IMG/VR virus record: IMGVR_UViG_3300017681_000004
Location: 1 to 39,406 of that record
Source of the DNA: a virus
Length of the DNA: 39,406 nucleotides
Direction: 5' to 3' (one strand)
In this document: piece by piece, positions 3,966 to 31,133 of the stretch
Numbering within the stretch: the first letter of the stretch is position 1
Layout of the letters: each line of letters starts with the position of its first letter
The notes under the pieces: model-generated
The model's input: the letters and a program-made list of their open reading frames with translations, nothing else
Databases searched by the model: none
Told to the model about the DNA's origin: nothing
Translations under genes and position numbers: made by a program

Positions 3966-4432
3966 GCGAGCGAGGTAAGTGGCCTAGAAAATCTCTAGAG
4001 GAAAGATTCCACCAGCGATATATTCCAGAGCCAAACTCAGGATGCTGGCTATGGATTGGTAAATTAAACGCCTATGGGTATGGCCGAGTTATAAGGTCTG
4101 GAACAAAAGAAGAGATGGCGCATCGCGTTTCTCTTGAGCTATCTGGCCTCCATTTAGCGAAAAACGAATTAGCCTGCCACCGCTGCGATACGCCATCGTG
4201 CGTCAACCCAGATCACATTTTTGTAGGATCACACGCAGACAATAGTAGAGATATGGCATCTAAAAAAAGAGGTACAATCGGAGAGTCAAATAGACATTCA
4301 AAGCTGACTTCCTCCCAAGTTGCAGACATAATAAAAGACAGCAGAAGCGCAAAGGATATTGCAGTAGCTTATGGCATTTGCGAATCTACTGTCAGAAATT
4401 ATAAATCTGGCAGAACGTGGGGACACCTGTAA
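3962..4432 (+). CDS. HNH homing-type endonuclease (HNH_3-like) with C-terminal HTH
   Basis: CWLWIGKLNAYGYGRV...AHRVS...CHRCDTPSCVNPDHIFVGSHADN. Hand count of 4021-4080 gives 43% G+C against 62-68% in flanking genes. Confidence 0.85.
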   Translation: MSERGKWPRKSLEERFHQRYIPEPNSGCWLWIGKLNAYGYGRVIRSGTKEEMAHRVSLELSGLHLAKNELACHRCDTPSCVNPDHIFVGSHADNSRDMASKKRGTIGESNRHSKLTSSQVADIIKDSRSAKDIAVAYGICESTVRNYKSGRTWGHL

Positions 4433-5091
4433 TGGACATGTCAGCTTTCGTAATGCCCAAATCAGACCAGTTAAACGCTGATGACCTGATTAGTGGCCCT
4501 CGAACAGTTACAATCACTAAAGTAGCCGGAACAAGTAACGCCGAGCAGCCCGTTGCTGTGTTTTTTGAGGGTGATAATAACCGGCCTTACAAGCCTGGAA
4601 AATCCATGCGCCGCGTGATGATCGCGGCATGGGGGCGTGATGCCGCGCAGTACGCCGGGCGCAGCATGACGCTATATTGCGACCCGACCGTGGTTTTTGG
4701 CGGCATCCAGGTTGGCGGCATCCGTATCAGCCACATGTCGCATATCGACCGCGATCTGACTCTGCTGCTGACCACGACGAAATCGAAGCGCAAGCCGTTC
4801 GAGGTGAAGCGGCTCGCGGAAGCGGCGCCCAAGCCGAATCGCCGAGAGGCCCTGTACGCCGCTGCGCGGGTCGCTGCCGGCAAGGGCCGGCGTTCGCTGA
4901 CCGAGTTCCGCGCGGGCCTACATCCGGCCGCCTACGACGCCCTAGAGCCGATCTGGCCCGAACTGACCGCGACCGCTGCGGCCAAAGAGATTCCCGCGCA
5001 CGACCCTGACACGGGCGTGATCGAGGATGCCGACCGACACGCCATTGATGGTGAAGGTCTGGACTACCCCCACGACGACGAGAGGATTTAA
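4432..5091 (+). CDS. Hypothetical conserved phage protein (219 aa)
   Basis: ATG 4432 overlaps the HNH stop (TAATG). No motif recognised. Its position after the exonuclease suggests a recombination or ssDNA-binding partner, which is inference only. Confidence 0.6.
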   Translation: MDMSAFVMPKSDQLNADDLISGPRTVTITKVAGTSNAEQPVAVFFEGDNNRPYKPGKSMRRVMIAAWGRDAAQYAGRSMTLYCDPTVVFGGIQVGGIRISHMSHIDRDLTLLLTTTKSKRKPFEVKRLAEAAPKPNRREALYAAARVAAGKGRRSLTEFRAGLHPAAYDALEPIWPELTATAAAKEIPAHDPDTGVIEDADRHAIDGEGLDYPHDDERI

Positions 5092-5502: not shown

Positions 5503-5646
5503 ATGACTGAGCGCAAAGAAAACTTCATCGCTTGTGGCGTGTTCGGAGGCCGAGATATCTCGGTCCCGGGGTTCGAAAACCGTTACGCTGCGCTGACCTA
5601 CGCATCGCTCAAGGGGTGGCGTGAGATCGCCATCCTTCGGAGCTAA
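5503..5646 (+). CDS. Small hypothetical protein (47 aa, below the ORF-track cut-off)
   Basis: Hand translation MTERKENFIACGVFGGRDISVPGFENRYAALTYASLKGWREIAILRS. GGAG lies 8 nt upstream of the ATG. The stop overlaps the stop of the convergent gene. Confidence 0.45.
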   Translation: MTERKENFIACGVFGGRDISVPGFENRYAALTYASLKGWREIAILRS

Positions 5647-6161
5647 TGCTTAATGGCGCCTAGGGCCTTCACGACGTTGTCGCTGATGAGTTCTAGGCGC
5701 CCACTAATCAGATCAAGGCGCGTAACCACCCGATCCATGTCCTTGGAAGTTCGCTCCTCTAGGGATGCGAGTTCCTTTTTGGTGGCGTACATGCCGGCCA
5801 CTTGTGAGCGATGCTCGCTGCTGCGATCTTCCATCATTTTGAGGCTCGCATTCACGGCCACCTGGAACGCGTCGCGCTCGTTGCGGCTGGCCTCTTTGGA
5901 AGCGTCCCGCACGGCTACAAGTTCCTTGAACTCTTTTCGGAGATCCTTGACGGCGTCCTGCACGTTCTCGAAATCGCGGTTCTTGCCGCCGATTCGCCAG
6001 AGCCAGCCGCCGAACCCGATCATCATTCCGATGAGCGCCAGCACGGTGACGGGCGAGACTTGCGGCTGCCAACTCAGCACGTCGCCGACCCCTGCGTCTT
6101 GAACGCGGGCTTGAGCTTCGATGAAAACGGGCTTCCATACCTGCGCATCCGGGAATCCCAT
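5643..6161 (-). CDS. Single-pass membrane protein with long coiled coil (i-spanin-like or holin-like), 172 aa
   Basis: ATG 6159-6161 overlaps the endolysin stop (TGATG). One TM (VTVLALIGMMIGFGGWLW) followed by a charged helical region. Last gene of the late operon. Confidence 0.5.
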   Translation of the reverse strand: MGFPDAQVWKPVFIEAQARVQDAGVGDVLSWQPQVSPVTVLALIGMMIGFGGWLWRIGGKNRDFENVQDAVKDLRKEFKELVAVRDASKEASRNERDAFQVAVNASLKMMEDRSSEHRSQVAGMYATKKELASLEERTSKDMDRVVTRLDLISGRLELISDNVVKALGAIKH

Positions 6162-7312
6162 CAGAAAAACGCCTGCCTGACCTTGATCCACGCGCTGAGA
6201 ATCGCGCTGACGCCCTTCCATAGCAGGAACAGGCCCGCCAAGATCAGGAAGAACGTTCGGTGCTCCACGACGAACCCGACGACGCTCGAGACCATTCCAA
6301 AGACTGTCTGCACCTGGCCGGCAACGTCGTTCGCCTTACTCAGCGCGTCCGTCAGGCCCGAGCCAGTCGCCCCGCCGAGACCCAGGAGGCCCGTGCCGGC
6401 CGTCATCAGCCAAGCCGGCGGGCTGAACAACTCCGGCCGGTGCTGCGCCGCCTCAGGCAAGCTCATGGTGGCGCGCTCGGTCGAAATCCGTGCGTGCGGC
6501 CACTTCGGCAGGCCGGCAAGGAATTCGGCATCAATCCCGCCGTCGCCAAGCCCGTTGTCCTTGCGGATCTGTGCGACCGCCGCCTGCGTCTTGCTGCCGT
6601 CGAGGCCGTCCAGCAGCCCCGTATTGTAGTACCCGCGATCCTTCAGGGCGGCTTGCACGTCCCATAACGCCGGATCGCCCTTCAGCCCCGGACGCGCCTT
6701 TTCAGAGACCGGCTTGGGACCGAGCCCTAGCAGCCGCTGCCACCAGGGGCGCGGCACGACGTCGGCCGCCACGGTTGGCGCGCGTGGCGCGGCTACGGGC
6801 GCCGCCGCGGGCCGCATCTGTGCGAGCATCGCCTCCACGGGGGCCGGACCGACTAGGACGTGGTTCAGGCCATCGCCGGCATAGTAGGACTGTCCGCGGC
6901 GCTTCCCGTTGATCGCCGACAGCACCGGGAACGACGCCCACTCCATCGCGATCTGATTGCCGAAATCGGTAGCCGACATCTTGCCGGCCATGAACTTCGC
7001 GTAGCCTCGGCGCAGCAGAAGCGCATACCCAAGCTCGTCCTGCGTCGTTGGCGACATCAGCGCGCGGCCGGACACCTTGCCCTCATCGCGCAGGCCCTTC
7101 AGCGTCGCAGTCATGAACTGGTAGCGACCGCACGCCGACGAGCCGAAATTCTTCGTGCGCCAGGGGCCGTTTTCGATTGCCTCGTCAACCGTCATGGACG
7201 TAATCGGCTTGACCATCCGGGACATCTTGTTCCCGTACACGGTGTCATAGCCGCGAGGCGCCTCGAAAGACGCGATGAAGTCGAGCGCGAGTTTCGCGGG
7301 CGCCGGGATCAT
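6161..7312 (-). CDS. Lysis enzyme: lambda-R-like (GH104) lytic transglycosylase + PG-binding domain + C-terminal TM anchor (383 aa)
   Basis: SFEAPRGYDTVYG...SSACGRYQFM...MEWASFP parallels lambda R (WSEGT...GAGRYQLL...IWASLPG). GDPALWDVQAALKDRGYY...TQAAVAQIRKDNGL is PG_binding_1-like. Three hydrophobic helices fall in the last ~85 aa (nt 6182-6415). Start taken at ATG 7310-7312. Confidence 0.75.
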   Translation of the reverse strand: MIPAPAKLALDFIASFEAPRGYDTVYGNKMSRMVKPITSMTVDEAIENGPWRTKNFGSSACGRYQFMTATLKGLRDEGKVSGRALMSPTTQDELGYALLLRRGYAKFMAGKMSATDFGNQIAMEWASFPVLSAINGKRRGQSYYAGDGLNHVLVGPAPVEAMLAQMRPAAAPVAAPRAPTVAADVVPRPWWQRLLGLGPKPVSEKARPGLKGDPALWDVQAALKDRGYYNTGLLDGLDGSKTQAAVAQIRKDNGLGDGGIDAEFLAGLPKWPHARISTERATMSLPEAAQHRPELFSPPAWLMTAGTGLLGLGGATGSGLTDALSKANDVAGQVQTVFGMVSSVVGFVVEHRTFFLILAGLFLLWKGVSAILSAWIKVRQAFF

Positions 7313-7316
7313 GGCG

Positions 7317-7505
7317 TCACTCAGGCTTAGCGGGCGGGATGAAATCTGTCGCCTGGTCGTCTCGTAACATGCCATCGGGTGTTGGAATAACATTCCGTTC
7401 GGACTTGATCCGATGGACCATCTCGCCGATTTCATCAGCGTCCAGCCGGGCGCCGGCAACCACCAGCAGGCGGGCCAAAACCTCGCCGGGCACTAGATAA
7501 TTCAT
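7317..7505 (-). CDS. Small hypothetical protein (62 aa)
   Basis: ORF 7317..7520. The ATG at 7503-7505 has GGGAG 5 nt upstream. No TM segment. Confidence 0.45.
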   Translation of the reverse strand: MNYLVPGEVLARLLVVAGARLDADEIGEMVHRIKSERNVIPTPDGMLRDDQATDFIPPAKPE

Positions 7506-7516
7506 TGCCATCTCCC

Positions 7517-8575
7517 TCACAGCTTCAGGTAGGTCGTTACCAGCAAAAACGGATTTGCGATAGAGAACGCTTGACCGCCACCCTTGCCATACACTTCGAC
7601 CGTGGCGTCATGCCCGTGGTTCGGCTGCGACACGGTGAACGAGTGCTGGTGAACCGGGTTTGACGTGCTGCTGGCCTGTGTGGCCGGCGCTGCCTCAGCA
7701 GGGCCTGGGTAGACGAAAAACACGTCTGTCCCGGCGCCAAGCTGCACCTTATACGAGACGACGCCGACTGCGTGCAGGTGCGGGATATTCTGGTTCGCGG
7801 TCGTCCCGTTGACCGTGAAGGCTCCGTTCGGCGCGATGGCGATTCCAGCGTCGTGGTTATGCGCCGGCAACTGGTTTTCGCCGAGCGCGACGGACCAACC
7901 GCCAGCGCGTGAGCCAAGTCGCGTCGCCGAGCCTCCGGAATTCCACGCCTGCGTGCCGTATGACCCGGTCGCCGTGCCGCCCATGCCGTCGAGCGAGGCC
8001 AGCACCCGGCCGCGCGCGTCGGGCAGCGTGATTGCCTTGCCGGCGTCATAGTCCTGTTGCGCCGTCTGCCCACGCCCGCCGACCACGACGAGCGAATCGT
8101 CTTCCGACCAGAGCGACAGGTACAGTGCCAGCGTATCGGCCGACGCGCGCTCAGTCGCTCCCGAAGCCGCGTTACCCATCGTCCGGCCGTTCATGCGGAC
8201 GTACCCGACGCGCGACCCGGTGCCGTAGAACTGCACCACCGCGCCTGTCGGAACTAGGCCGGTGTTGTCGCCCTCACCGCCGTCGACCACAGGCGGATCG
8301 GTCAGCGTGACGCCGTCCGCCTCCCATAGGATCGAGCCGCCGACTGGGGCCGTCAGCAGGCGCAGCTTGAACGAGCCGGCGCCGTACATGGCCGGCAGGA
8401 GGCCGGCGCCGTTGACCGGGATCGGGTTCGGGTGCTCGGTGCCGTTCGTGTAGGCCGGCGACTTGTAGAGCACGGCGGGCGTCGTCGTGCCGGCCTGGTA
8501 GACCATCAGGGCCGCCGTGCGCACGAGTTCGCCGTTCGCGTCGAGGACCGGGTTAAGGCTGAAGGGGGCGAGCAT
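7517..8575 (-). CDS. Tail fibre protein with phage tail-collar domain
   Basis: GAVVQFYGTG...VRMNGRT...LPDARGRVL...LPAHNH...HQH...HGH pattern resembles tail-collar (MdpB-like) fibre tips. Confidence 0.7.
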   Translation of the reverse strand: MLAPFSLNPVLDANGELVRTAALMVYQAGTTTPAVLYKSPAYTNGTEHPNPIPVNGAGLLPAMYGAGSFKLRLLTAPVGGSILWEADGVTLTDPPVVDGGEGDNTGLVPTGAVVQFYGTGSRVGYVRMNGRTMGNAASGATERASADTLALYLSLWSEDDSLVVVGGRGQTAQQDYDAGKAITLPDARGRVLASLDGMGGTATGSYGTQAWNSGGSATRLGSRAGGWSVALGENQLPAHNHDAGIAIAPNGAFTVNGTTANQNIPHLHAVGVVSYKVQLGAGTDVFFVYPGPAEAAPATQASSTSNPVHQHSFTVSQPNHGHDATVEVYGKGGGQAFSIANPFLLVTTYLKL

Positions 8576-10869: not shown

Positions 10870-13077
10870 TCATAGCCCGGCCGAAGAATAGCCCATATCC
10901 TTCAGCTTTTGGATCACCTGCTCTGACGACCTCTTGCCGGACGCAATTGCTTCACGCGCCTGCTGGATCGTCGCGGCTGGCGCGGCCTTAAGCGGGCCGG
11001 ACGCGCTCGCGTCGCGCTGGCCCTTCGGCAGCGGACGCCCCGGCTCATCGCTTCGCTTGATCGCGTCCTCCACGAGCGTCGGGTTCGCCTCGCGGAACTT
11101 GCGGAACATATCAAGCGGGTTCGGGACAGCGCGCAGCGCCTGCGCGTACTCAGCGGCCTTGATCTCGCCGTTTCGGTAGCGAGTCGCGATGTCGCCACGC
11201 TGAATCTCGCCCTGGGCCTGCGCCTGCATCATGTCGAATACGAGTTCGCGGGCTTCCGGCAATTGCAGCAGGCCGGGTAGCGCCTTCGCGTACATCTTCT
11301 GCTCAAAATCCGACGTCGCGCCGGAGCCCGGCGGGCGCATGTTCGGCGTCAACTTGGCGATGATCCCGCTGTACGCCTGGATATCACCGACGCCGTCGAG
11401 TTTCACGCCGAGGGCCTGAGCGTAGGGCGCGAGACCTTCCTTGATCGAAGCTTCGACGCCCTGAACGCCGAGGTTCCGGCTTAACGTGCGCAGGGTCTCA
11501 ATGTCCGGCAGGCGCGCGGCCGCAGCCTGCCCCGCGGTCTGGTAGGTCTCGGAATCCTTGACCCGTGCCGCTGCGAGGCCCGTGCTTTCGGCGCCCTCCG
11601 CGCGCGTGTCGACGTTGACCAGCGCGCCGCCGCCGAGCGCCCGCGACCCGAAGTCTTTCCAGAACGCGGCGTTCTCCGGCGCACTCGGGTCCGGCAGGCC
11701 AAGAGCACGCCAGTTTTGGCGAGCGGCGGCTACCTTTTCCGTGCCGTCCTTTTCGGGCGCCCGGGTCGCGTTCGCCTTGGCGGCGCGCCAAGCCATCGGG
11801 TCGCCCTTGAACCCATTGGCGACGTCCCAAAGGTATTCCTTTTGCTCTGACGTCGTCTGCCGGTTCTCGCGGTCAAGCTGCAACTCGTTCGCGAGGAGTG
11901 CCTTGGCCGCTTCCTTGCCGCCCTCAGGCGCGCCCGGGTGCGACATGGCCCGCACGAGGAACTGAATGCGCTGTGCCGAGCCCGGCTGCATCTGCTGCAT
12001 CTGCGCGGCTGCGGCGGGCTTCAGGCCGGATTGCACGAGAACCTGAGGCGCGGCCTGCGCGACCTGCACGCGCTGTTCGGGCTGCACCGTGTCTGCCTCA
12101 GGCGGCAGGATCATGGGCGCGCCGCCGCTCGAGACGGTCGGGGCAGGGGCGGCAGGCGCCGCGCTCGCCGTGGCGTTCGGTAGGGTCGGCATGAACGAAG
12201 GGTCAGCGCTTGCGACCTGAACGCGACTCGCAGGGGCATCCGGGTTCGTGCCAGACACGCGCGTCGTGGCGCCGCCGAACTTGCTTGTGCGCTCGGCGAG
12301 AACTTGGCCGGCCGTTTTCGGCGAACCGTCGCGATTGAAGAACACCGTGCGGTTCGCAGCCGCCGCGCCAGGCGTCACGTAGGCCGTGGCCGGAGCATCG
12401 GGATTCTGCATCGCGCCGCGGATAAACCGCGGCCCGCCCGCCTCACCGAGGAAGTGCGAAACGTACAGGTTCCCCGGCGTGATCGGCACGCCCGCGCTCG
12501 TCAGCGCCCGCGCGTTGTCAGCCGTGAACTTTTCCATTGCGCGCGTCGACTGCGCCGGGTCCGTGCGCCCGTTCGCCGTCAGCCCGAGTTCGGGATACTT
12601 CGCGCGCAGGCCGTCCCACGTCTGTTTCGTAAACTGGTCGATCCCAGTTGCGGTGCTGTTCGGGTTCTTCGCGTTCGCGTTGCCGCCGGACTCCTTACCG
12701 CGCAGTACGGCGAGATAAGAGCCGGCAGGGCCAGAGGCGTCCGTAAACGACGGGCCGCGCGTCGGGGCGACCGTGGCCGGCGTGCCCGTCACCGCGTCGG
12801 GCTGCTGGCCGCCGTACAGCGCCGCGAGGCCGCCGCCGAATCCTTTCTGGTAGTCCGCCGCCTGCGCCTTCGATTCACCGAGCTTCACCAGCGACAAGCC
12901 GGTCTGAAGGTCGCCCGCGTCGAATGCCGTCTTGGCCGCGCCTGCGTAGTCGCCGGACTGAACTTGCCCGCCGAGCGCCTGCAACAGCGATTGCGTCCGC
13001 TGCTTTTCGAGACCTTCCGCGAGCGACGCGCCGGCCTTCGACAGGGCGGAAAAATCGACTGCAACACCGCCAGACAT
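10870..13077 (-). CDS. Internal virion / ejection protein with soluble lytic transglycosylase (SLT) domain (735 aa)
   Basis: GKESGGNANAKNPNSTATGIDQFTKQTWDGL...YVSHFLG matches the catalytic Glu-Ser and GxxQ motifs of the SLT family. Size and position are as in T7 gp16-type proteins. Confidence 0.75.
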   Translation of the reverse strand: MSGGVAVDFSALSKAGASLAEGLEKQRTQSLLQALGGQVQSGDYAGAAKTAFDAGDLQTGLSLVKLGESKAQAADYQKGFGGGLAALYGGQQPDAVTGTPATVAPTRGPSFTDASGPAGSYLAVLRGKESGGNANAKNPNSTATGIDQFTKQTWDGLRAKYPELGLTANGRTDPAQSTRAMEKFTADNARALTSAGVPITPGNLYVSHFLGEAGGPRFIRGAMQNPDAPATAYVTPGAAAANRTVFFNRDGSPKTAGQVLAERTSKFGGATTRVSGTNPDAPASRVQVASADPSFMPTLPNATASAAPAAPAPTVSSGGAPMILPPEADTVQPEQRVQVAQAAPQVLVQSGLKPAAAAQMQQMQPGSAQRIQFLVRAMSHPGAPEGGKEAAKALLANELQLDRENRQTTSEQKEYLWDVANGFKGDPMAWRAAKANATRAPEKDGTEKVAAARQNWRALGLPDPSAPENAAFWKDFGSRALGGGALVNVDTRAEGAESTGLAAARVKDSETYQTAGQAAAARLPDIETLRTLSRNLGVQGVEASIKEGLAPYAQALGVKLDGVGDIQAYSGIIAKLTPNMRPPGSGATSDFEQKMYAKALPGLLQLPEARELVFDMMQAQAQGEIQRGDIATRYRNGEIKAAEYAQALRAVPNPLDMFRKFREANPTLVEDAIKRSDEPGRPLPKGQRDASASGPLKAAPAATIQQAREAIASGKRSSEQVIQKLKDMGYSSAGL

Positions 13078-17139: not shown

Positions 17140-18324
17140 TTACGCGTCGTCGATGGAGGCGAAATACGCCGTATAGACGGACCAGTCCTTCAACTGGTTC
17201 GGGTTGTCCTGGAAGCGCTTGAACACCTTGCCGAGGCCGTACGCAGCCTCGATGCCGCGACCCTTCAGGAACCCGTAATCGTCTTCCTTGCGCTCGGTCG
17301 GCTTCCACATCTGGCCGTAGCAGACCGCGACAGCGTTCTGACCAACCATGAACACCGGAGCCACGTTGATGCCCGCCGCGCCCGCGCCCGTGACCGTGCA
17401 GAAGTTCTCAAGCTCGGGGATCTCGCGGATGATGATGCCGCGGTACAGCAGATCGCCGTCCTGAAACAGCGGGTTGTCGTCCATGCCGTTGCCCTCGCGA
17501 GCGCGGGCGTTGGTGTTGGCCGAGATGATGACGGAATCGTTGGACAGGTCGCGGAAGGCATTCGAGCCGGCGAACACGACGAAATATTCCTGCGCGCCGC
17601 CCTTCTTGACCATGTACGGCTTGATGGCCGGATCAGCCTTGCGGGCGCGGCGCTTCATCAGCAGCAGCGACGCGGCGGTCAGGCGGCCAGTCGAGGCCGA
17701 GACGTTGGCGAGCGAGGCCGAGTGCGAGCCGCCGACGTAGTTCGCGACCGTGTTGCCGTACTGCACGCGGTCGATGTTGGCGGTGTGCCACGTGTTCTTC
17801 TGTGCAGCGGTCGCGGCCGAGTAGAGAACGCCGTTCACACGCTGACCGGCTGCGGTGTATGCGCCATACGAAGCCAGGGTTTCGGAGCCAAGGTTGATCG
17901 GCGGCGACTCTGAGGGAATCGCATGGAGCGCGATGATGATCTCATCGCGGATCAGCAGCTTGGACCATTCCGCAAGGTGCGGACGAACAACCTCAAGCTG
18001 ATCAAACGATGACTTGTGAAGCTCCTTCTTCGAAAGCAGCACCGCGTTGCGGGCCCAGTCAAGCCAGAAGCGGACGCCGTTCGAATCCAGCTTTTCCTCA
18101 TTGCCGGTCAGCGGGCCGGACGAGACGCCGGGGCCACGCAGACGGCCAAGAATTGGGACGTTCATCTGCTCGCCGCCGTCCTTCAGTTCGTGAAGAACCT
18201 GAATGATCGACGTGGTTTCCTCGCCCATGTAAGGGCTGAACAGATTCTCGCGGCGATACTCCTTCCAGTACTTTTTGCGGTACTGGACGAGAGAATTATT
18301 GGGAGCGGTTTGCGTAACGGCCAT
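17140..18324 (-). CDS. Major capsid protein, N4-gp56 family type (DUF4043-like)
   Basis: 394 aa. The N-terminal pattern YWKEYRRENLFSPYMG...IIQVLHELKDGGEQMNVPILGRL...LTGNEEKL resembles the N4-gp56 capsid family as recalled. Follows a scaffold-like gene. Confidence 0.75.
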   Translation of the reverse strand: MAVTQTAPNNSLVQYRKKYWKEYRRENLFSPYMGEETTSIIQVLHELKDGGEQMNVPILGRLRGPGVSSGPLTGNEEKLDSNGVRFWLDWARNAVLLSKKELHKSSFDQLEVVRPHLAEWSKLLIRDEIIIALHAIPSESPPINLGSETLASYGAYTAAGQRVNGVLYSAATAAQKNTWHTANIDRVQYGNTVANYVGGSHSASLANVSASTGRLTAASLLLMKRRARKADPAIKPYMVKKGGAQEYFVVFAGSNAFRDLSNDSVIISANTNARAREGNGMDDNPLFQDGDLLYRGIIIREIPELENFCTVTGAGAAGINVAPVFMVGQNAVAVCYGQMWKPTERKEDDYGFLKGRGIEAAYGLGKVFKRFQDNPNQLKDWSVYTAYFASIDDA

Positions 18325-24966: not shown

Positions 24967-25192
24967 CTCCTCCGGCCAACTCGCGGACGTCGTCTGGGTG
25001 CCCCGCCTTAGAAGAAACACTCCACGAATTCCCGCAGCTATGGCAAGTGCGGGTTCTTGTCGTCGTGTTTGGGTCAAGCCCTCCGATCTGGTTGCCACGC
25101 TTGTCATACGTCGGCGTCCATCCCATCAGGGTCATCATGCTGCCGCTGTAGCTGAATCGGCAGTCCTCACGCGCGCATTCGTCCATCGTCAT
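24962..25192 (-). CDS. Small zinc-ribbon protein (76 aa)
   Basis: CAREDC...CHSCG four-Cys pattern. ATG 25190-25192 overlaps the portal stop (ATGA). The ORF track lists 24962..25198. Confidence 0.6.
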   Translation of the reverse strand: MTMDECAREDCRFSYSGSMMTLMGWTPTYDKRGNQIGGLDPNTTTRTRTCHSCGNSWSVSSKAGHPDDVRELAGGG

Positions 25193-25209
25193 CCCCATGG
25201 GTTGTCATC
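25189..25209 (-). repeat. Repeat R1: portal 3' end GAT GAC AAC CCA TGG GGA TGA
   Basis: Prototype copy. These are the last six codons plus the stop of the portal gene. Confidence 0.85.
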
Positions 25210-27249
25210 CTCTGGCTCCGGCTGCGCCCACAGCCCGCCATCCATCCCTTCCGGGTCGCTCGGGACCGGCCCCTGCATGGCCTGCTCTGTCGGCCCCTCA
25301 GGCGCGATCTGGGGCACGGCGGACACATGCGCGTCGACCATCGTCTTGACCGTCTGCGCCTGCTCCTTGCCCGCCTGAACGCCGATCTTGCCCGTCTCGG
25401 CCTGCACCTTGCCGACCGTGGCGCCGGCCTGTGCCGCCTGAGCCTGCTTCAGCGTGGTCTCGGCCTGCGTTTTGCCGACGTCGGCCTGTGCCTGCGCTAG
25501 TTCGATCTGCGCCGCCTGCTGGACCGCCGGGTTCGGCTGCTGCGCCTTTTCGATCTCGCCCATGGCCTCCTTTTTCACAGAAGCCGGCAGGGCAGACAGT
25601 TTCAGAATCAGCCCAGGCGGGATCTGCTGCCCGTTCTGAGCCAGAGCGAGCAGCGTATCGAAGGCGTCGGCCATCGCGTTGACGTTGTCCGGCCCCTCAT
25701 CGATCAGGATATCGACATCGAGCGAGCCGAGCGCGTTCACGAGCACCTGTTGCCCGAGTTCGCCCTGTTCGGTGCCATTGACTTGAAGGAACTCGGTCAG
25801 TCCTTCGCTGTCGGTGACGCGAATCCAGCGCTCTGCGGTCCAGAATTGCTGAACAGCCGACCAAATCGCACGATATACCCGGATTTTCCATCCGCGGTAG
25901 CGAAGTAGAAACGGACCAAGCTCGGCGATCCCTGCCTGCTGTAGCAACTGTATTGCCCGGCCAGACTGGTTCTTGCCACCTTCGCCGACGAGCGATGGAT
26001 TGGGCCCGAAATTGTCGATTTCGTTCTTGGCGTCCTCAAGAAACGCCATATTCCCCTGAAAATCCGCAGTGCCCTGCTCGACCTCATATTTCCCATCCGT
26101 GTTTAGCTCAATGAACCCGTCAACGCGCGCCTCCTCACGACGGGCAACCTCGACGTCATCGACCACGCCCCGCTGCGCACGGATCTTCCGGCTGTTCAAG
26201 CTGTGCAGGGCCTTGGAACGGCGGCGATTGATCTCGTCCTGCGGGCTCTTGAGGTCGCGCACGAACCCATAGCGGTCATCGTCCTGGTCGATCATGTTCG
26301 AGTACATGATGAGCCGGCAGGAGGACGCGCCCTTGTTGTCCTTGAACGGCGACGGGCCGCGTTCGAGCACGATGTCGCCCGTGTAGAAGCAATAGAACCA
26401 GTCGCGGCCCTTGCGATACCAGTGCTCTACGACGCGGACGGTTCGCTCGCGGGTGTTGGTCCATTTGGTCTGACGGTTGGTGTCGGTGGGGTTGTCTTCG
26501 GAGCCTCCCGTTGCAGAGACGCTGTCGCGTACAGACTGTGCGTGATCAGGCCACAACTCGGCGACCAAACCTCCATCCATCCATTTGTGGATACCCATGA
26601 ATGTGGCGTCAGAAAAGTCTGCGCGGGCAGATCGCGGGTCATAGAAAAACTCCCTCGGGTCGATGCGCTGAATCGAGATATCCGGGTCGCCCTGGTCGCC
26701 GGCCTCGACCACGATCTCAAGTCCGCCAATCGCCGACGTGGCTCCATCCTCGGCGCAGTCGGGGCTGATGGATTTCCAGTCGTTCTGATCCAGCACGTAG
26801 TTCAGGACCGCTGTGGCAAGCTCGGCGCCGTCCTCGTGCTTCGGCGTGCGGGCGAACGACTTCGGGTCCTGCCGCAGGCGCTCGAGCAGGCCGACGACGG
26901 CGTTGATCTTCCGCGAGACCCGGTTGAACGTGACCACCGGCTGACCGCGGCCTCGCAGCTTGCGGATCTCTTTCTCGGTCCACTGCGAGCCGTGGCGGTA
27001 TCGGCGCGACTCCTGCGCCTCGTCCATCTCGGCGGACTTCGACCCGAGATAATCGCTGTACTGGCGCCGCAGCCGTTCCAAGCCATCCGCGTCGAGGCCG
27101 TCGAGATCCTTGACGGCGCCCATCTGACGGCCGATCGACCCGCTGGTCTCGACCGTGTAGCGCTCGCCACGGGGCATCCGCGTTTTCATCTCGCGAACGT
27201 CGCCGGGTGCCACCAGCTTTTCGCCGGGGCCGATTAGTCCTGCCGTCAT
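25189..27249 (-). CDS. Portal protein
   Basis: 686 aa, downstream of TerL. Has a RYRHGSQWTEKEIRKLRGRGQPVVTFNRV-type portal N-terminal motif (RYY.G.QW...GRP...N). C-terminal Gln/Ala-rich helix and an acidic tail. Confidence 0.85.
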   Translation of the reverse strand: MTAGLIGPGEKLVAPGDVREMKTRMPRGERYTVETSGSIGRQMGAVKDLDGLDADGLERLRRQYSDYLGSKSAEMDEAQESRRYRHGSQWTEKEIRKLRGRGQPVVTFNRVSRKINAVVGLLERLRQDPKSFARTPKHEDGAELATAVLNYVLDQNDWKSISPDCAEDGATSAIGGLEIVVEAGDQGDPDISIQRIDPREFFYDPRSARADFSDATFMGIHKWMDGGLVAELWPDHAQSVRDSVSATGGSEDNPTDTNRQTKWTNTRERTVRVVEHWYRKGRDWFYCFYTGDIVLERGPSPFKDNKGASSCRLIMYSNMIDQDDDRYGFVRDLKSPQDEINRRRSKALHSLNSRKIRAQRGVVDDVEVARREEARVDGFIELNTDGKYEVEQGTADFQGNMAFLEDAKNEIDNFGPNPSLVGEGGKNQSGRAIQLLQQAGIAELGPFLLRYRGWKIRVYRAIWSAVQQFWTAERWIRVTDSEGLTEFLQVNGTEQGELGQQVLVNALGSLDVDILIDEGPDNVNAMADAFDTLLALAQNGQQIPPGLILKLSALPASVKKEAMGEIEKAQQPNPAVQQAAQIELAQAQADVGKTQAETTLKQAQAAQAGATVGKVQAETGKIGVQAGKEQAQTVKTMVDAHVSAVPQIAPEGPTEQAMQGPVPSDPEGMDGGLWAQPEPEDDNPWG

Positions 27250-27503: not shown

Positions 27504-28997
27504 TCAATCCCCCATCAAATCGTCGCCATACGCGCGCGACGCCCCAACCTCTGCATACCCGGTTTCGTCGCCCTTGTCTGGCTTTCTCGGCGGCGCGGCG
27601 GCGAGCGCCTTGTCGAGTAGCTGCCCGATCAGTCCAAGTGCGTCGACTTGGTCGTCATGGACGCCCGCCGGGAAGCGAAGCATTTCGGCTTCGAGCGCGG
27701 ACCTCCATACAGCCGAGGCTGGAACACGTAGCCCGCGACTCGCAATCATGCCGCGAAAAGATTGTGCACGTGTAGCCTTGTCGCCCCGCGTCGGGAACTG
27801 CTCGCGCACCGTGTACGCCTTCCGCTCCTGCATCGCGCGCGTCAGGTACGGGCCCACGCTCGCCTTGATCTGTCCGGTTTCCTCGGCCCATCCTAACGGT
27901 CTCCACTTTTTCACGAGGTCGCAAAACGCATCCACCCACACGTCCGAACTGGCCTGGCCGCGCCAGAGATCCACCAGCCACGGATTGTCCTCGGCATCTA
28001 GCCCGATGACCGCGTGCACCGTGTAATCGCCGCCGTTGGCCGTCACGGCGTAATCCGAGCCGCCGTAGAACCGATATGCCCCACCAGCCGAACGGGCGTC
28101 CTTGGGGCTGGAATCGACGGGGATCAGCCATTCGGCGCGGAAGAAATCGCCCGTGTCCGGCGTCGGCTCCTGCTGGAACAGCGCGGACCACGAGCGCGTG
28201 TCGAGTTCGGCGTGGCGCTTGCGCAGAAATTGTCCGTAGAGGTACGCCGGGTCGTTGTCCCACAGGTATTGCCCAGGCATCCGGCCGAGCGGGTCGCCGA
28301 GCCCTGCGATGGCCGGCATGGTCAAGACGTCCCATCCCTCAGGGTTCGCCTCGGAGACCAGCCCGTCGCGCTCGATCAGCCGGCCCGAGAGGTCGTCCTC
28401 GTGCCATCTGGTATTCGTTATAATTTGGCGGGCGCCGGGTCGCAGTCGGTTTTCGAAGTCGTCGAGGTACCATTCCCAGATACGGTCACGGACAAGTTTG
28501 CTGTCGGCGTCTTGTCGGGAGCGTATTGGATCGTCAACGAGGCCAAGATCGGCTCGGAATCCCGCGATGCCAACGCCCACGCCCGCCGCAAGATACTCTC
28601 GATCTCCCGTCGTGCTCCAGCGCTCAACCGCAGTTTCTCTGAGGCCGTATCCAAGCGTGTGTCCATGACTTGTCGCCAATCCCCTGACTTTTCGAGAAAA
28701 CCGCTGCGCCAACTGCGAATTGTGCGACCCGGCGATGACGTGCCCGCCTTTTTCGTGGGCCAAAAACCACGTCGGAAATAGCACGCTGCTGTACGAACTT
28801 TTGGCTGAGCCGGGCGGCGCGAATATCATCAACTTCCGGATCGACCCGTCAGCGACCGCCTGAAGGTGCTCGCACATGACGCGGTGATGCAACTGCGGCT
28901 GCTGGTCTGCGGGCTGAACGCGCCGGCAGAAGGCTAGGTAATCGCGCCGGAGGTGGCGGCGCTCTAGGAGGAGCGCCGCGGCTTGTTGGGGGGTCAT
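27504..28997 (-). CDS. terL: Terminase large subunit
   Basis: 497 aa. Walker A-like FAPPGSAKSS, LVDDP (Walker B region), nuclease-region TRWHEDDLSGRL. Confidence 0.9.
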   Translation of the reverse strand: MTPQQAAALLLERRHLRRDYLAFCRRVQPADQQPQLHHRVMCEHLQAVADGSIRKLMIFAPPGSAKSSYSSVLFPTWFLAHEKGGHVIAGSHNSQLAQRFSRKVRGLATSHGHTLGYGLRETAVERWSTTGDREYLAAGVGVGIAGFRADLGLVDDPIRSRQDADSKLVRDRIWEWYLDDFENRLRPGARQIITNTRWHEDDLSGRLIERDGLVSEANPEGWDVLTMPAIAGLGDPLGRMPGQYLWDNDPAYLYGQFLRKRHAELDTRSWSALFQQEPTPDTGDFFRAEWLIPVDSSPKDARSAGGAYRFYGGSDYAVTANGGDYTVHAVIGLDAEDNPWLVDLWRGQASSDVWVDAFCDLVKKWRPLGWAEETGQIKASVGPYLTRAMQERKAYTVREQFPTRGDKATRAQSFRGMIASRGLRVPASAVWRSALEAEMLRFPAGVHDDQVDALGLIGQLLDKALAAAPPRKPDKGDETGYAEVGASRAYGDDLMGD

Positions 28998-30819: not shown

Positions 30820-30860
30820 GTAAAATATTCCCACGCCGCATTTAGCACGCGTGGCGTGGG
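30820..30860 (-). terminator. Intrinsic terminator-like hairpin
   Basis: CCCACGCC...GGCGTGGG, 8-bp stem followed by AATATTTTAC on the minus strand. Confidence 0.55.
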
Positions 30861-30869
30861 TTGGGGAAG

Positions 30870-30995
30870 TCACGACAGATCGCCGAACAGAACCCGGAAC
30901 ACCCCGGCGACCATTGCGGCGAGCATGATCGTAAAACCTAAGATGCACGTCGCTAGCATCAGATAGACCAGCGCCCATCCCATAAAATCCAGCAT
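30870..30995 (-). CDS. Small membrane protein (41 aa)
   Basis: MLDFMGWALVYLMLATCILGFTIMLAAMVAGVFRVLFGDLS. ATG overlaps the upstream stop (TGATG). Confidence 0.5.
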   Translation of the reverse strand: MLDFMGWALVYLMLATCILGFTIMLAAMVAGVFRVLFGDLS

Positions 30996-31129
30996 CACAG
31001 CCTCCCAGCGTTCAGCAGCAGCCAAACGACACACAGGGCCACACATGCGCCCGTGTAAGCCTCGCGGGTTCGTCGCCACAGCGCGAGGTTCGCGACAGCC
31101 AGAAGCGAAATGATAATCGTAAACGCCAT
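30995..31129 (-). CDS. Small membrane protein (44 aa, below the ORF-track cut-off)
   Basis: Hand translation MAFTIIISLLAVANLALWRRTREAYTGACVALCVVWLLLNAGRL. Two hydrophobic helices. Confidence 0.45.
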   Translation of the reverse strand: MAFTIIISLLAVANLALWRRTREAYTGACVALCVVWLLLNAGRL

Positions 31130-31133
31130 CACA

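Follow-up and report, generated by a model that had tools for sequence, protein, structure and literature searches.

The window analysed here, a stretch of 39,406 nucleotides (nt) spanning positions 1 to 39,406 of the IMG/VR virus record IMGVR_UViG_3300017681_000004, encodes a modular endolysin of 383 amino acids (aa), referred to below as P0001. By analogy with enzymes that have been studied in other phages, P0001 is probably an endolysin of the functional class that brings its own C-terminal membrane domain, in which the membrane module would be required in cis and the timing of lysis would be left to separate membrane proteins. Comparison with its relatives indicates that the fusion is real, under selection, and portable, since it is conserved across these relatives, always sits at the C-terminus, and occurs on several catalytic domains; it bears no sign of an origin from a recognisable stand-alone holin. 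An original prediction, made from the letters of the window, had the anatomy of the protein right; on how unusual the protein is, and on the lack of a holin, it claimed too much.

The catalytic domain

The ATG start of the gene agrees with the N-termini of the relatives (MIPAPAK...), and residues 1-170 match PHROG 90 'endolysin' (9.5e-26). Aligned by hhalign with lambda R, the P0001 family profile (38 sequences) covers 108 columns with a probability of 72% and an E value of 3.4e-5, placing query residues 6-130 on R residues 8-129; the pairwise BLASTP comparison of P0001 with lambda R gives an E value of 0.003. E17, located in the first helix, is invariant in the 38 sequences and is aligned to the Glu of the lambda WSEG motif (residue 19 by a count along the alignment as printed). 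Both proteins have the (S/W)xE Glu, GYD, GRYQ, and WAS(F/L)P motifs in common. The lambda-R-like core proposed in the original prediction is thus borne out by the hhalign and PHROG 90 matches and by the position of E17, as is its division of the protein into three parts: the catalytic, PG_binding_1, and C-terminal helical parts are all found.

In Pfam the catalytic domain goes unscored, and PF00959 does not match it. The AlphaFold2 model, built on the family alignment, has a mean predicted local distance difference test (pLDDT) score of 80.8, rising to ~95 in the catalytic domain, with disordered linkers at residues 171-187 and 317-335. Its best fold match in BFVD is gp18 of Bradyrhizobium phage Paso (1.2e-10). 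When the full-length model was compared with the PDB by Foldseek, nothing significant came up (best E 1.4); the presence of three domains on flexible linkers may have hindered this search. By hydropathy and in the AlphaFold2 model, no hydrophobic window precedes residue 295 and the N-terminus is simply the first catalytic helix; P0001 therefore has no N-terminal signal or signal-arrest-release (SAR) domain. Two class assignments could be discarded. P0001 is not a SAR endolysin, as it has no weakly hydrophobic segment at its N-terminus. Neither does it belong to the PHA02564/Enc34-type sequence family, named here after Hafnia phage Enc34: searches of the PDB sequences with the single sequence and with the family profile (E <= 1) returned no Enc34 chain, and the catalytic domain aligns with lambda R.

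Two further observations concern this domain. The sole solved structure with sequence similarity to it is PDB chain 11mn_A ('66 kDa protein'), in which residues 276-356 match the profile with an E value of 1.1e-6; the similarity spans the region from GYD to QD and lies at the C-terminal end of the 359-aa chain. BFVD also matches the catalytic fold to parts of large gp5-like baseplate hubs from cyanomyophages and from Agrobacterium phage Atu_ph07, so this lysozyme family serves as a tail-associated enzyme as well as an endolysin.

The wall-binding domain and the membrane module

The second part of the protein is a PG_binding_1 domain. PF01471 matches residues 218-265 with an E value of 1.1e-5 and 25.9 bits, above its gathering cutoff of 23 bits, and so upholds the PG_binding_1-like repeat that had been proposed earlier. 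The family profile also matches the N-terminal wall-binding domain of phiKZ gp144 (E ~2e-6), and AlphaFold2 places helices at residues 214-225, 240-252, and 262-270 of this region.

Three hydrophobic C-terminal helices had been predicted at nt 6182-6415. AlphaFold2 helices at residues 293-315, 335-350, and 352-379 (H1, H2, and H3) match this prediction as to their number and place; as membrane spans, only the last of them is clear. H3 (353-377 by hydropathy) has a Kyte-Doolittle 19-residue mean (KD19) of 2.19 and a summed Hessa score of ~0, whereas H2 is marginal (KD19 1.48, summed Hessa ~+6.3) and H1 weak (KD19 1.02, summed Hessa ~+6.7). The core of H1 consists for 67% of Gly, Ala, Ser, and Thr, which is a SAR-like composition, and H3 carries a Lys in the middle of the helix and ends in a KVRQAFF tail. 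Throughout the family the module conserves GxGxLGLGGAxGxGLLD in H1, a VEH turn, G360, the mid-helix Lys, and the IKVRxAFF end.

The module is a part of larger enzymes wherever it was found. A phmmer search with residues 285-383 against 1.84 billion representative proteins revealed no stand-alone module and hit only the C-termini of enzymes of 280-421 aa, next to three short apparent fragments beginning at an internal Met (judged on P0141) and one weak partial match in a 3760-aa protein. Separate production of the module from an internal start could also be dismissed: the last 125 codons of the window gene and of its counterparts in the related loci L001, L002, L003, and L012 contain no in-frame start with a Shine-Dalgarno sequence, and the internal Met residues are not conserved.

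Relatives and exchange of modules

The database search with P0001 returned 698 relatives, the best 119 of which were classed by architecture. All three modules are present in homologous form in 91 of these 119, so that the fusion noted in the original prediction is met again in a survey of homologues. Another seven have the same wall-binding and membrane module behind a different catalytic domain, either of the PF00959 T4/glycoside hydrolase family 24 (GH24) type or of the PF18013 tail-lysozyme type. Nine, mainly from Mesorhizobium, join a P0001-type catalytic domain to a non-homologous hydrophobic C-terminus in the same place, ten consist of the catalytic domain with a short C-terminal tail, and the remaining two have other architectures (one without a wall-binding match, one without a clear hydrophobic end). 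The C-terminal transmembrane feature is kept, or replaced by analogous helices, in 108/119 relatives. PF00959/GH24-type domains are confined to the domain-swapped relatives P0081, P0089, and P0091. Judged from these sequences, the wall-binding and membrane module behaves as a portable unit that is exchanged among three types of catalytic domain.

Among the relatives reduced to the catalytic domain, the tail is cationic in the three examined, namely P0106, P0111, and P0119 (227-239 aa), where a tail such as GGLLSRALARLRAALAA replaces the wall-binding and membrane modules. These cationic tails may represent a different way of engaging the membrane.

Candidates for a separate holin

The original prediction had seen no separate holin and had taken the 172-aa product of the downstream gene (P0002) for the only other membrane protein. 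Neither statement holds: two small membrane open reading frames (ORFs), each preceded by a ribosome-binding site, lie at 30870-31132 (Table 1), and relatives have separate membrane proteins by the enzyme gene. The two-helix ORF is preceded by a GGGGG Shine-Dalgarno-like run, and its start abuts the upstream stop; the 41-aa ORF has GGGAGG 7 nt before its ATG, in a TGATG stop/start overlap. Both are located at the start of the late operon, just upstream of a TerS-like (DUF5681) gene, where T7 also has its holin gp17.5. Phage Paso has a 69-aa membrane protein with two transmembrane domains at the same position. The related locus L007 has two ORFs there, one of 50 aa with two helices and a short one with a single helix; in L010, only a 30-aa one-helix ORF is present and the two-helix ORF is absent. 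The positional counterparts of the 41-aa ORF in L007 and L010 measure ~30-34 aa.

Other relatives keep such proteins in the lysis region itself. Of the more distant prophages with a three-module endolysin, L003 (Methylorubrum populi) encodes a separate 186-aa multi-helix protein (7227-7787) and L012 a 172-aa five-helix protein (4191-4709), while L014 encodes two, one of 61 aa with two helices upstream and one of 186 aa with multiple helices downstream (4477-5037). In Stappia phage SI01, an 85-aa three-helix protein is encoded directly upstream of the anchored enzyme. Neither the small ORFs nor the membrane proteins of the relatives match a holin family, and they therefore remain candidates. 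The 172-186-aa protein with three to five transmembrane helices, which recurs in the prophage lysis regions of L003, L012, and L014 and is absent from the window's clade, is a candidate for a large holin or an accessory membrane protein.

The start of the late operon has a peculiarity of its own. A terminator-like hairpin (30849-30832), with AATATTTT after it, overlaps the first ATG in the 134-aa TerS-like ORF; for this reason translation of that gene probably begins at the Met located 12 codons further on, in front of which lies an AAGGA site. A separate short transcription unit may be made up of the first late gene and the two small membrane ORFs.

How the enzyme may reach the wall

If P0001 is indeed an endolysin with a cis-acting membrane domain of its own, it would be synthesised in the cytoplasm, H3, probably with H2, would fix it to the inner membrane, and the enzyme would be kept on the cytoplasmic side, away from the wall, during virion assembly. 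At lysis, access of the enzyme to the murein would depend on the membrane module in cis. Full-length P0001 alone would then be expected to be lytic or toxic upon overexpression and a version without the module not, in analogy with M4Lys of Salmonella phage BSPM4, ORF39 of phage Enc34, and LysAP of Acidovorax oryzae phage AP1. The timing would probably be set by separate membrane proteins, i.e., P0002 and/or the small ORFs at 30870-31132. After crossing, the PG_binding_1 domain would keep the enzyme on the wall, and the outer membrane would be breached without a classical two-part spanin.

Several points weigh against this reading. The functional evidence comes from non-homologous analogues, as P0001 has no sequence match to the Enc34-type enzymes, and the route by which a tethered cytoplasmic enzyme arrives at the wall is unexplained even for M4Lys, Enc34 ORF39, and LysAP. 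In P0001 itself, a single helix out of three is clearly transmembrane, and Lys and Arg are distributed almost evenly across the loops, which makes a positive-inside analysis uninformative for the topology; that of P0002 was no more telling. Moreover, just one residue separates H2 from H3 in the AlphaFold2 model, so that the two may form one kinked helix instead of a hairpin. Lastly, relatives retain separate membrane proteins of two to five helices by the enzyme gene, and a plain anchor combined with an ordinary holin fits this equally well.

Such a passive anchor, whose helices only park the enzyme on the inner side of the membrane while the small ORFs at 30870-31132 or P0002 make the lesions, is a possibility to be taken seriously, albeit not the one we would expect. 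It would account for the well-placed ribosome-binding sites of the small ORFs upstream of the TerS-like gene, the two-domain membrane protein at the same position in Paso, the three-helix protein next to the SI01 enzyme, and the multi-helix proteins in the cassettes of L003, L012, and L014 (with the additional 61-aa protein in the last). The two-helix ORF is, however, missing from L010, where a 30-aa single-helix peptide is all that is left, and none of the candidates matches a holin family. In the analogues that have been studied, the neighbouring 'holin' was dispensable and did not rescue the enzyme without its membrane domain (PMC7143992). The conserved polar residues of the module (VEH, the mid-helix Lys, and KVRxAFF) suggest, in addition, more than a greasy anchor. 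One could also turn the argument around and regard P0001 as a holin-endolysin fusion, in which the module oligomerises and makes the lesion itself, no other holin being needed. The small-residue motifs on one face of H1-H3, the cationic tail (as in holins), the lytic or toxic effect of M4Lys, Enc34 ORF39, and LysAP on their own, and the absence of a multi-helix membrane protein adjoining the enzyme in the window's clade all agree with such a built-in holin. We nevertheless consider it unlikely: neither a stand-alone homologue of the module, as a sign of a holin ancestor, nor an internal start for its separate production was found, the hydrophobicity of two of the three helices is poor, and relatives with the same module retain separate membrane proteins. 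The membrane domain of M4Lys alone, furthermore, is only bacteriostatic (PMC7143992).

An export route of the SAR type, moved to the C-terminus, would place each of the three helices across the membrane and the C-terminus on the inner side, and the enzyme and its wall-binding domain would be tethered in the periplasm until they are freed or activated on depolarisation. H1 has the required richness in Gly, Ala, Ser, and Thr, the Lys/Arg-rich extreme C-terminus favours a C-in orientation, and GenBank names the Paso homologue a SAR endolysin; besides, Sec-dependent export was proposed by the authors of LysAP (PMC8879335) and an N-out topology was predicted by those of M4Lys (PMC7143992). Against this stand the hydropathy scores of H1 and H2, which are far from spontaneous insertion, the N-in/C-in prediction for the homologous layout of the Salmonella phage Siskin enzyme (PMC6498227), and the remark of the Enc34 authors that export of an N-terminal domain by a C-terminal signal is not known (PMC8943055), and we regard the route as quite doubtful. 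A role outside lysis altogether, as an entry enzyme of the virion that would digest the wall and insert in the inner membrane during DNA ejection, seems very improbable to us. The occurrence of the same catalytic fold in the gp5-like baseplate hubs of cyanophages and Agrobacterium phage Atu_ph07 speaks for it; its main difficulty is that the phage is already equipped with a transglycosylase-type ejection protein of 735 aa, besides an ejection-protein block. The P0001 gene, moreover, follows the tail protein gene at the end of the operon and is coupled to a membrane-protein gene, and the Paso and SI01 homologues are encoded outside the virion module.

Beyond the cis-acting membrane domain that we favour, a bolder idea may be put forward tentatively, although the chances are rather against it. 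The PG_binding_1 domain and the three-helix module could together be a portable, self-sufficient unit that carries a signal-less hydrolase across the inner membrane, by export or by a lesion in cis, and docks it on the murein. No canonical holin or spanin would be needed, and P0002, perhaps with P0003 (the product of the gene just upstream), would act as timer or chaperone. If true, this would amount to a compact lysis system grafted onto three unrelated lysozyme types.

Neighbouring genes and the spanin question

The start of the P0002 gene overlaps the stop of the endolysin gene (TGATG), and the same gene order is found in L001 and L002. P0002 has a strongly conserved, net-acidic N-terminus (residues 1-36), a transmembrane helix (37-57), and a helix of 108 residues (64-171), in agreement with the single-transmembrane coiled-coil protein described before. 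Its match to the Rz-like spanins of PHROG 739 is weak (E 0.0088). All 16 close relatives of P0002 belong to the window's phage clade, one of them to a genome whose endolysin carries a swapped PF00959 catalytic domain. Similar transmembrane-plus-helix proteins beside more distant relatives of the endolysin were considered as homologues of P0002 and set aside, as there is no detectable similarity; they are positional analogues only.

The earlier label 'i-spanin-like' may apply to P0002: the shape fits, whereas a partner o-spanin is missing and the acidic N-terminus of 36 residues is unlike the short one of lambda Rz. The lipobox scan found no candidate o-spanin ORF embedded in or adjacent to the P0002 gene, alternative frames included, in the window, L001, or L002, and genome-wide no convincing lipobox ORF, which confirms the reported absence and disposes of an o-spanin embedded in the P0002 gene. 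This absence is not unusual, because no spanin could be identified in 91 of 677 phages of Gram-negative hosts (PMC6139136). Given the missing partner and the long conserved N-terminus, P0002 could be i-spanin-like or, equally, a single-helix holin or a regulator, as far as its sequence goes. In phage Siskin, a proposed N-out/C-in 'class IV' holin likewise adjoins a C-terminally anchored endolysin (PMC6498227).

On the other side of the endolysin gene, P0003 has no transmembrane segment in the hydropathy scan, as was stated before. Proteins of this type (62-79 aa, all ending in AKPE) occupy the same place, directly before the anchored endolysin gene, in four lineages, i.e., the window, L001 (5808-5996), L003 (5755-5994), and L014 (2298-2495); a homologue is absent in L002. 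The AKPE end overlaps with the region in which the endolysin gene has its weak Shine-Dalgarno sequence, and its conservation may in part reflect this ribosome-binding site. P0003 could be a lysis regulator or a chaperone of the endolysin. Searches of P0002, P0003, and the small membrane ORFs against PHROGs, Pfam, and NCBIfam gave nothing or weak matches only.

A different arrangement was seen in the Mesorhizobium prophage L013, where a 133-aa DUF1515 coiled-coil protein with a C-terminal transmembrane helix (4081-4482) is encoded two genes past the anchored endolysin. The intervening gene codes for a protein of 93 aa that has two Cys and a transmembrane helix at its N-terminus, and the two proteins may be a spanin-like or holin-like pair.

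Genome setting and host

Family matches identify the window as the ~39-kb genome of an uncultivated, podovirus-like phage; apart from the genes in Table 1, a P22-type head-closure protein and a DNA-ejection protein are recognised. The late genes are encoded on the minus strand and extend from ~31466 to 5643, the point at which an early operon converges on them; the P0001 gene comes after the tail protein gene, right at the end of this late operon. Because genomes of Methylobacterium, Methylorubrum, and Mesorhizobium contain the closest named relatives of P0001, a Methylobacterium-like alphaproteobacterium is the probable host. The TerS-like protein, used as a query against viral contigs, returned no relative.

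Table 1. Features of the window, with positions counted from its first nucleotide
Feature	Position	Strand	Basis
P0002, 172-aa membrane protein	5643..6161	-	Hydropathy, predicted helix, weak PHROG 739 match
P0001, 383-aa modular endolysin (catalytic domain, linker, PG_binding_1, C-terminal membrane module)	6161..7312	-	ORF, PHROG 90, AlphaFold2
P0001 helices H2 (residues 335-350) and H3 (352-379)	6176..6310	-	KD19, AlphaFold2
P0001 helix H1 (residues 293-315), glycine-rich, weakly hydrophobic	6368..6436	-	KD19, composition, AlphaFold2
P0001 PG_binding_1 wall-binding domain (residues ~211-270)	6503..6682	-	Pfam PF01471, profile match, AlphaFold2
P0001 catalytic domain (residues 1-170), lambda-R-like lysozyme/lytic transglycosylase fold	6803..7312	-	hhalign, pLDDT ~95, BFVD
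P0003, 62-aa acidic soluble protein, just upstream of the endolysin gene	7317..7505	-	No transmembrane segment
Tail protein	7517-8575		Family match
735-aa transglycosylase-type ejection protein	10870-13077		Family match
Major head protein	17140-18324		Family match
Portal	25189-27249		Family match
Large terminase	27504-28997		Family match
Terminator-like hairpin between the 41-aa ORF and the TerS-like gene	30832-30849	-	
41-aa ORF, one long hydrophobic helix, small membrane protein	30870..30995	-	KD19 2.36
Small ORF with two hydrophobic helices, 44 aa (ATG 31129) or 45 aa (GTG 31132), holin candidate	30995..31132	-	KD19 2.27

Significance

How an anchored enzyme gains access to the wall is an unsolved problem, and the P0001 family, which counts ~100 close relatives among the phages and prophages of alphaproteobacteria, is an independent instance of it. 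Two features of the family are useful, the wall-binding domain between enzyme and anchor and the natural occurrence of the same module on three catalytic domains. With the relatives that have the catalytic domain only or non-homologous helices, these provide ready-made domain-swap controls to distinguish an anchor from an exporter or a lesion-former. The lack of an adjacent holin or o-spanin is no evidence of a new lysis strategy (compare the fraction of phages without an identifiable spanin in PMC6139136). As for annotation, enzymes of the P0001 type are not to be labelled SAR endolysins.

Comparison with known endolysins

The GH104 lytic transglycosylase lambda R is a soluble single-domain enzyme of 158 aa that is released by the holin S; P0001 has a wall-binding domain and a membrane module in addition. 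SAR endolysins (P1 Lyz, phage 21 R21, and phiKMV gp45) are membrane-tethered as P0001 is presumed to be, and H1 resembles SAR domains in its richness in Gly and Ala. SAR domains are, however, N-terminal and act as Sec signal-anchors, whereas P0001 has no N-terminal hydrophobic segment.

The original prediction had called a C-terminal multi-transmembrane fusion atypical. It is rare indeed, yet not unprecedented, as is evident from four papers (PMC6498227, PMC7143992, PMC8943055, and PMC8879335) and from the annotation of Paso; we found no later mechanistic work on endolysins with a C-terminal transmembrane domain in the literature beyond these four. The Siskin endolysin has two C-terminal helices and is predicted to be N-in/C-in (PMC6498227). 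M4Lys lyses E. coli when the full-length protein is produced alone, and does so in an azide-insensitive manner; without the membrane domain it is inert, even together with the neighbouring 'holin', and the domain by itself is bacteriostatic (PMC7143992). Its authors predict an N-out topology (PMC7143992). Of Enc34 ORF39 only the full-length form is toxic, and the authors point to the lack of any known pathway that would export an N-terminal domain by means of a C-terminal signal; the arrangement seemed to them limited to chi-like and related phages (PMC8943055).

These three enzymes resemble P0001 in having a signal-less N-terminal catalytic domain, a linker, one or two C-terminal membrane helices, and a cationic end, and in the place of their genes in a lysis cassette beside that of a single-helix membrane protein. 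In this type the membrane domain is needed for lysis or toxicity, a requirement that would extend to P0001 by analogy. The differences are equally clear. Their catalytic domain is that of PHA02564, with a glucosaminidase-like fold, and is unrelated to the lambda-R-like domain of P0001; they have no wall-binding domain, whereas P0001 has PG_binding_1; their phages infect enterobacterial hosts; and Enc34 has a recognisable i-spanin/o-spanin pair, while none was found for the P0001 phage.

LysAP combines a GH24 domain with one C-terminal helix, on which membrane localisation and lysis depend; a spanin was not found, and a separate small holin enhances lysis; Sec-dependent export has been proposed (PMC8879335). 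A lysozyme-type domain, a C-terminal membrane helix, and the missing spanin are thus common to LysAP and P0001, which differ in that the former has a GH24 domain, a single helix, and no PG_binding_1 domain.

Paso gp18 and the 'muramidase' of SI01 (GenBank MT708546 and MZ462995), two proteins of cultured phages that are known from annotation only, have a homologous catalytic domain, with ~41% identity and E values of 1e-22 to 1e-24 in tblastn. In both, a Gly-rich helix comes after the catalytic domain and is succeeded by a strong C-terminal helix with Lys/Arg at its end, and both phages have alphaproteobacterial hosts. Unlike P0001, they lack PG_binding_1 and their membrane helices are not homologous to H1-H3; they come from T7-like phages with the endolysin gene in the DNA-metabolism region. 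GenBank calls Paso gp18 a 'transmembrane-domain-containing SAR endolysin transglycosylase', for which the annotators cite a 99% HHpred match to PDB 1AM7, and the Paso genome paper does not discuss the protein. Among the records of cultured phages, none covers >43% of P0001. Set against all these systems, what is new here, to judge from sequence comparison, is the three-module form with PG_binding_1, its spread in prophages of the Methylobacterium group, and the exchange of its module among three catalytic domains.

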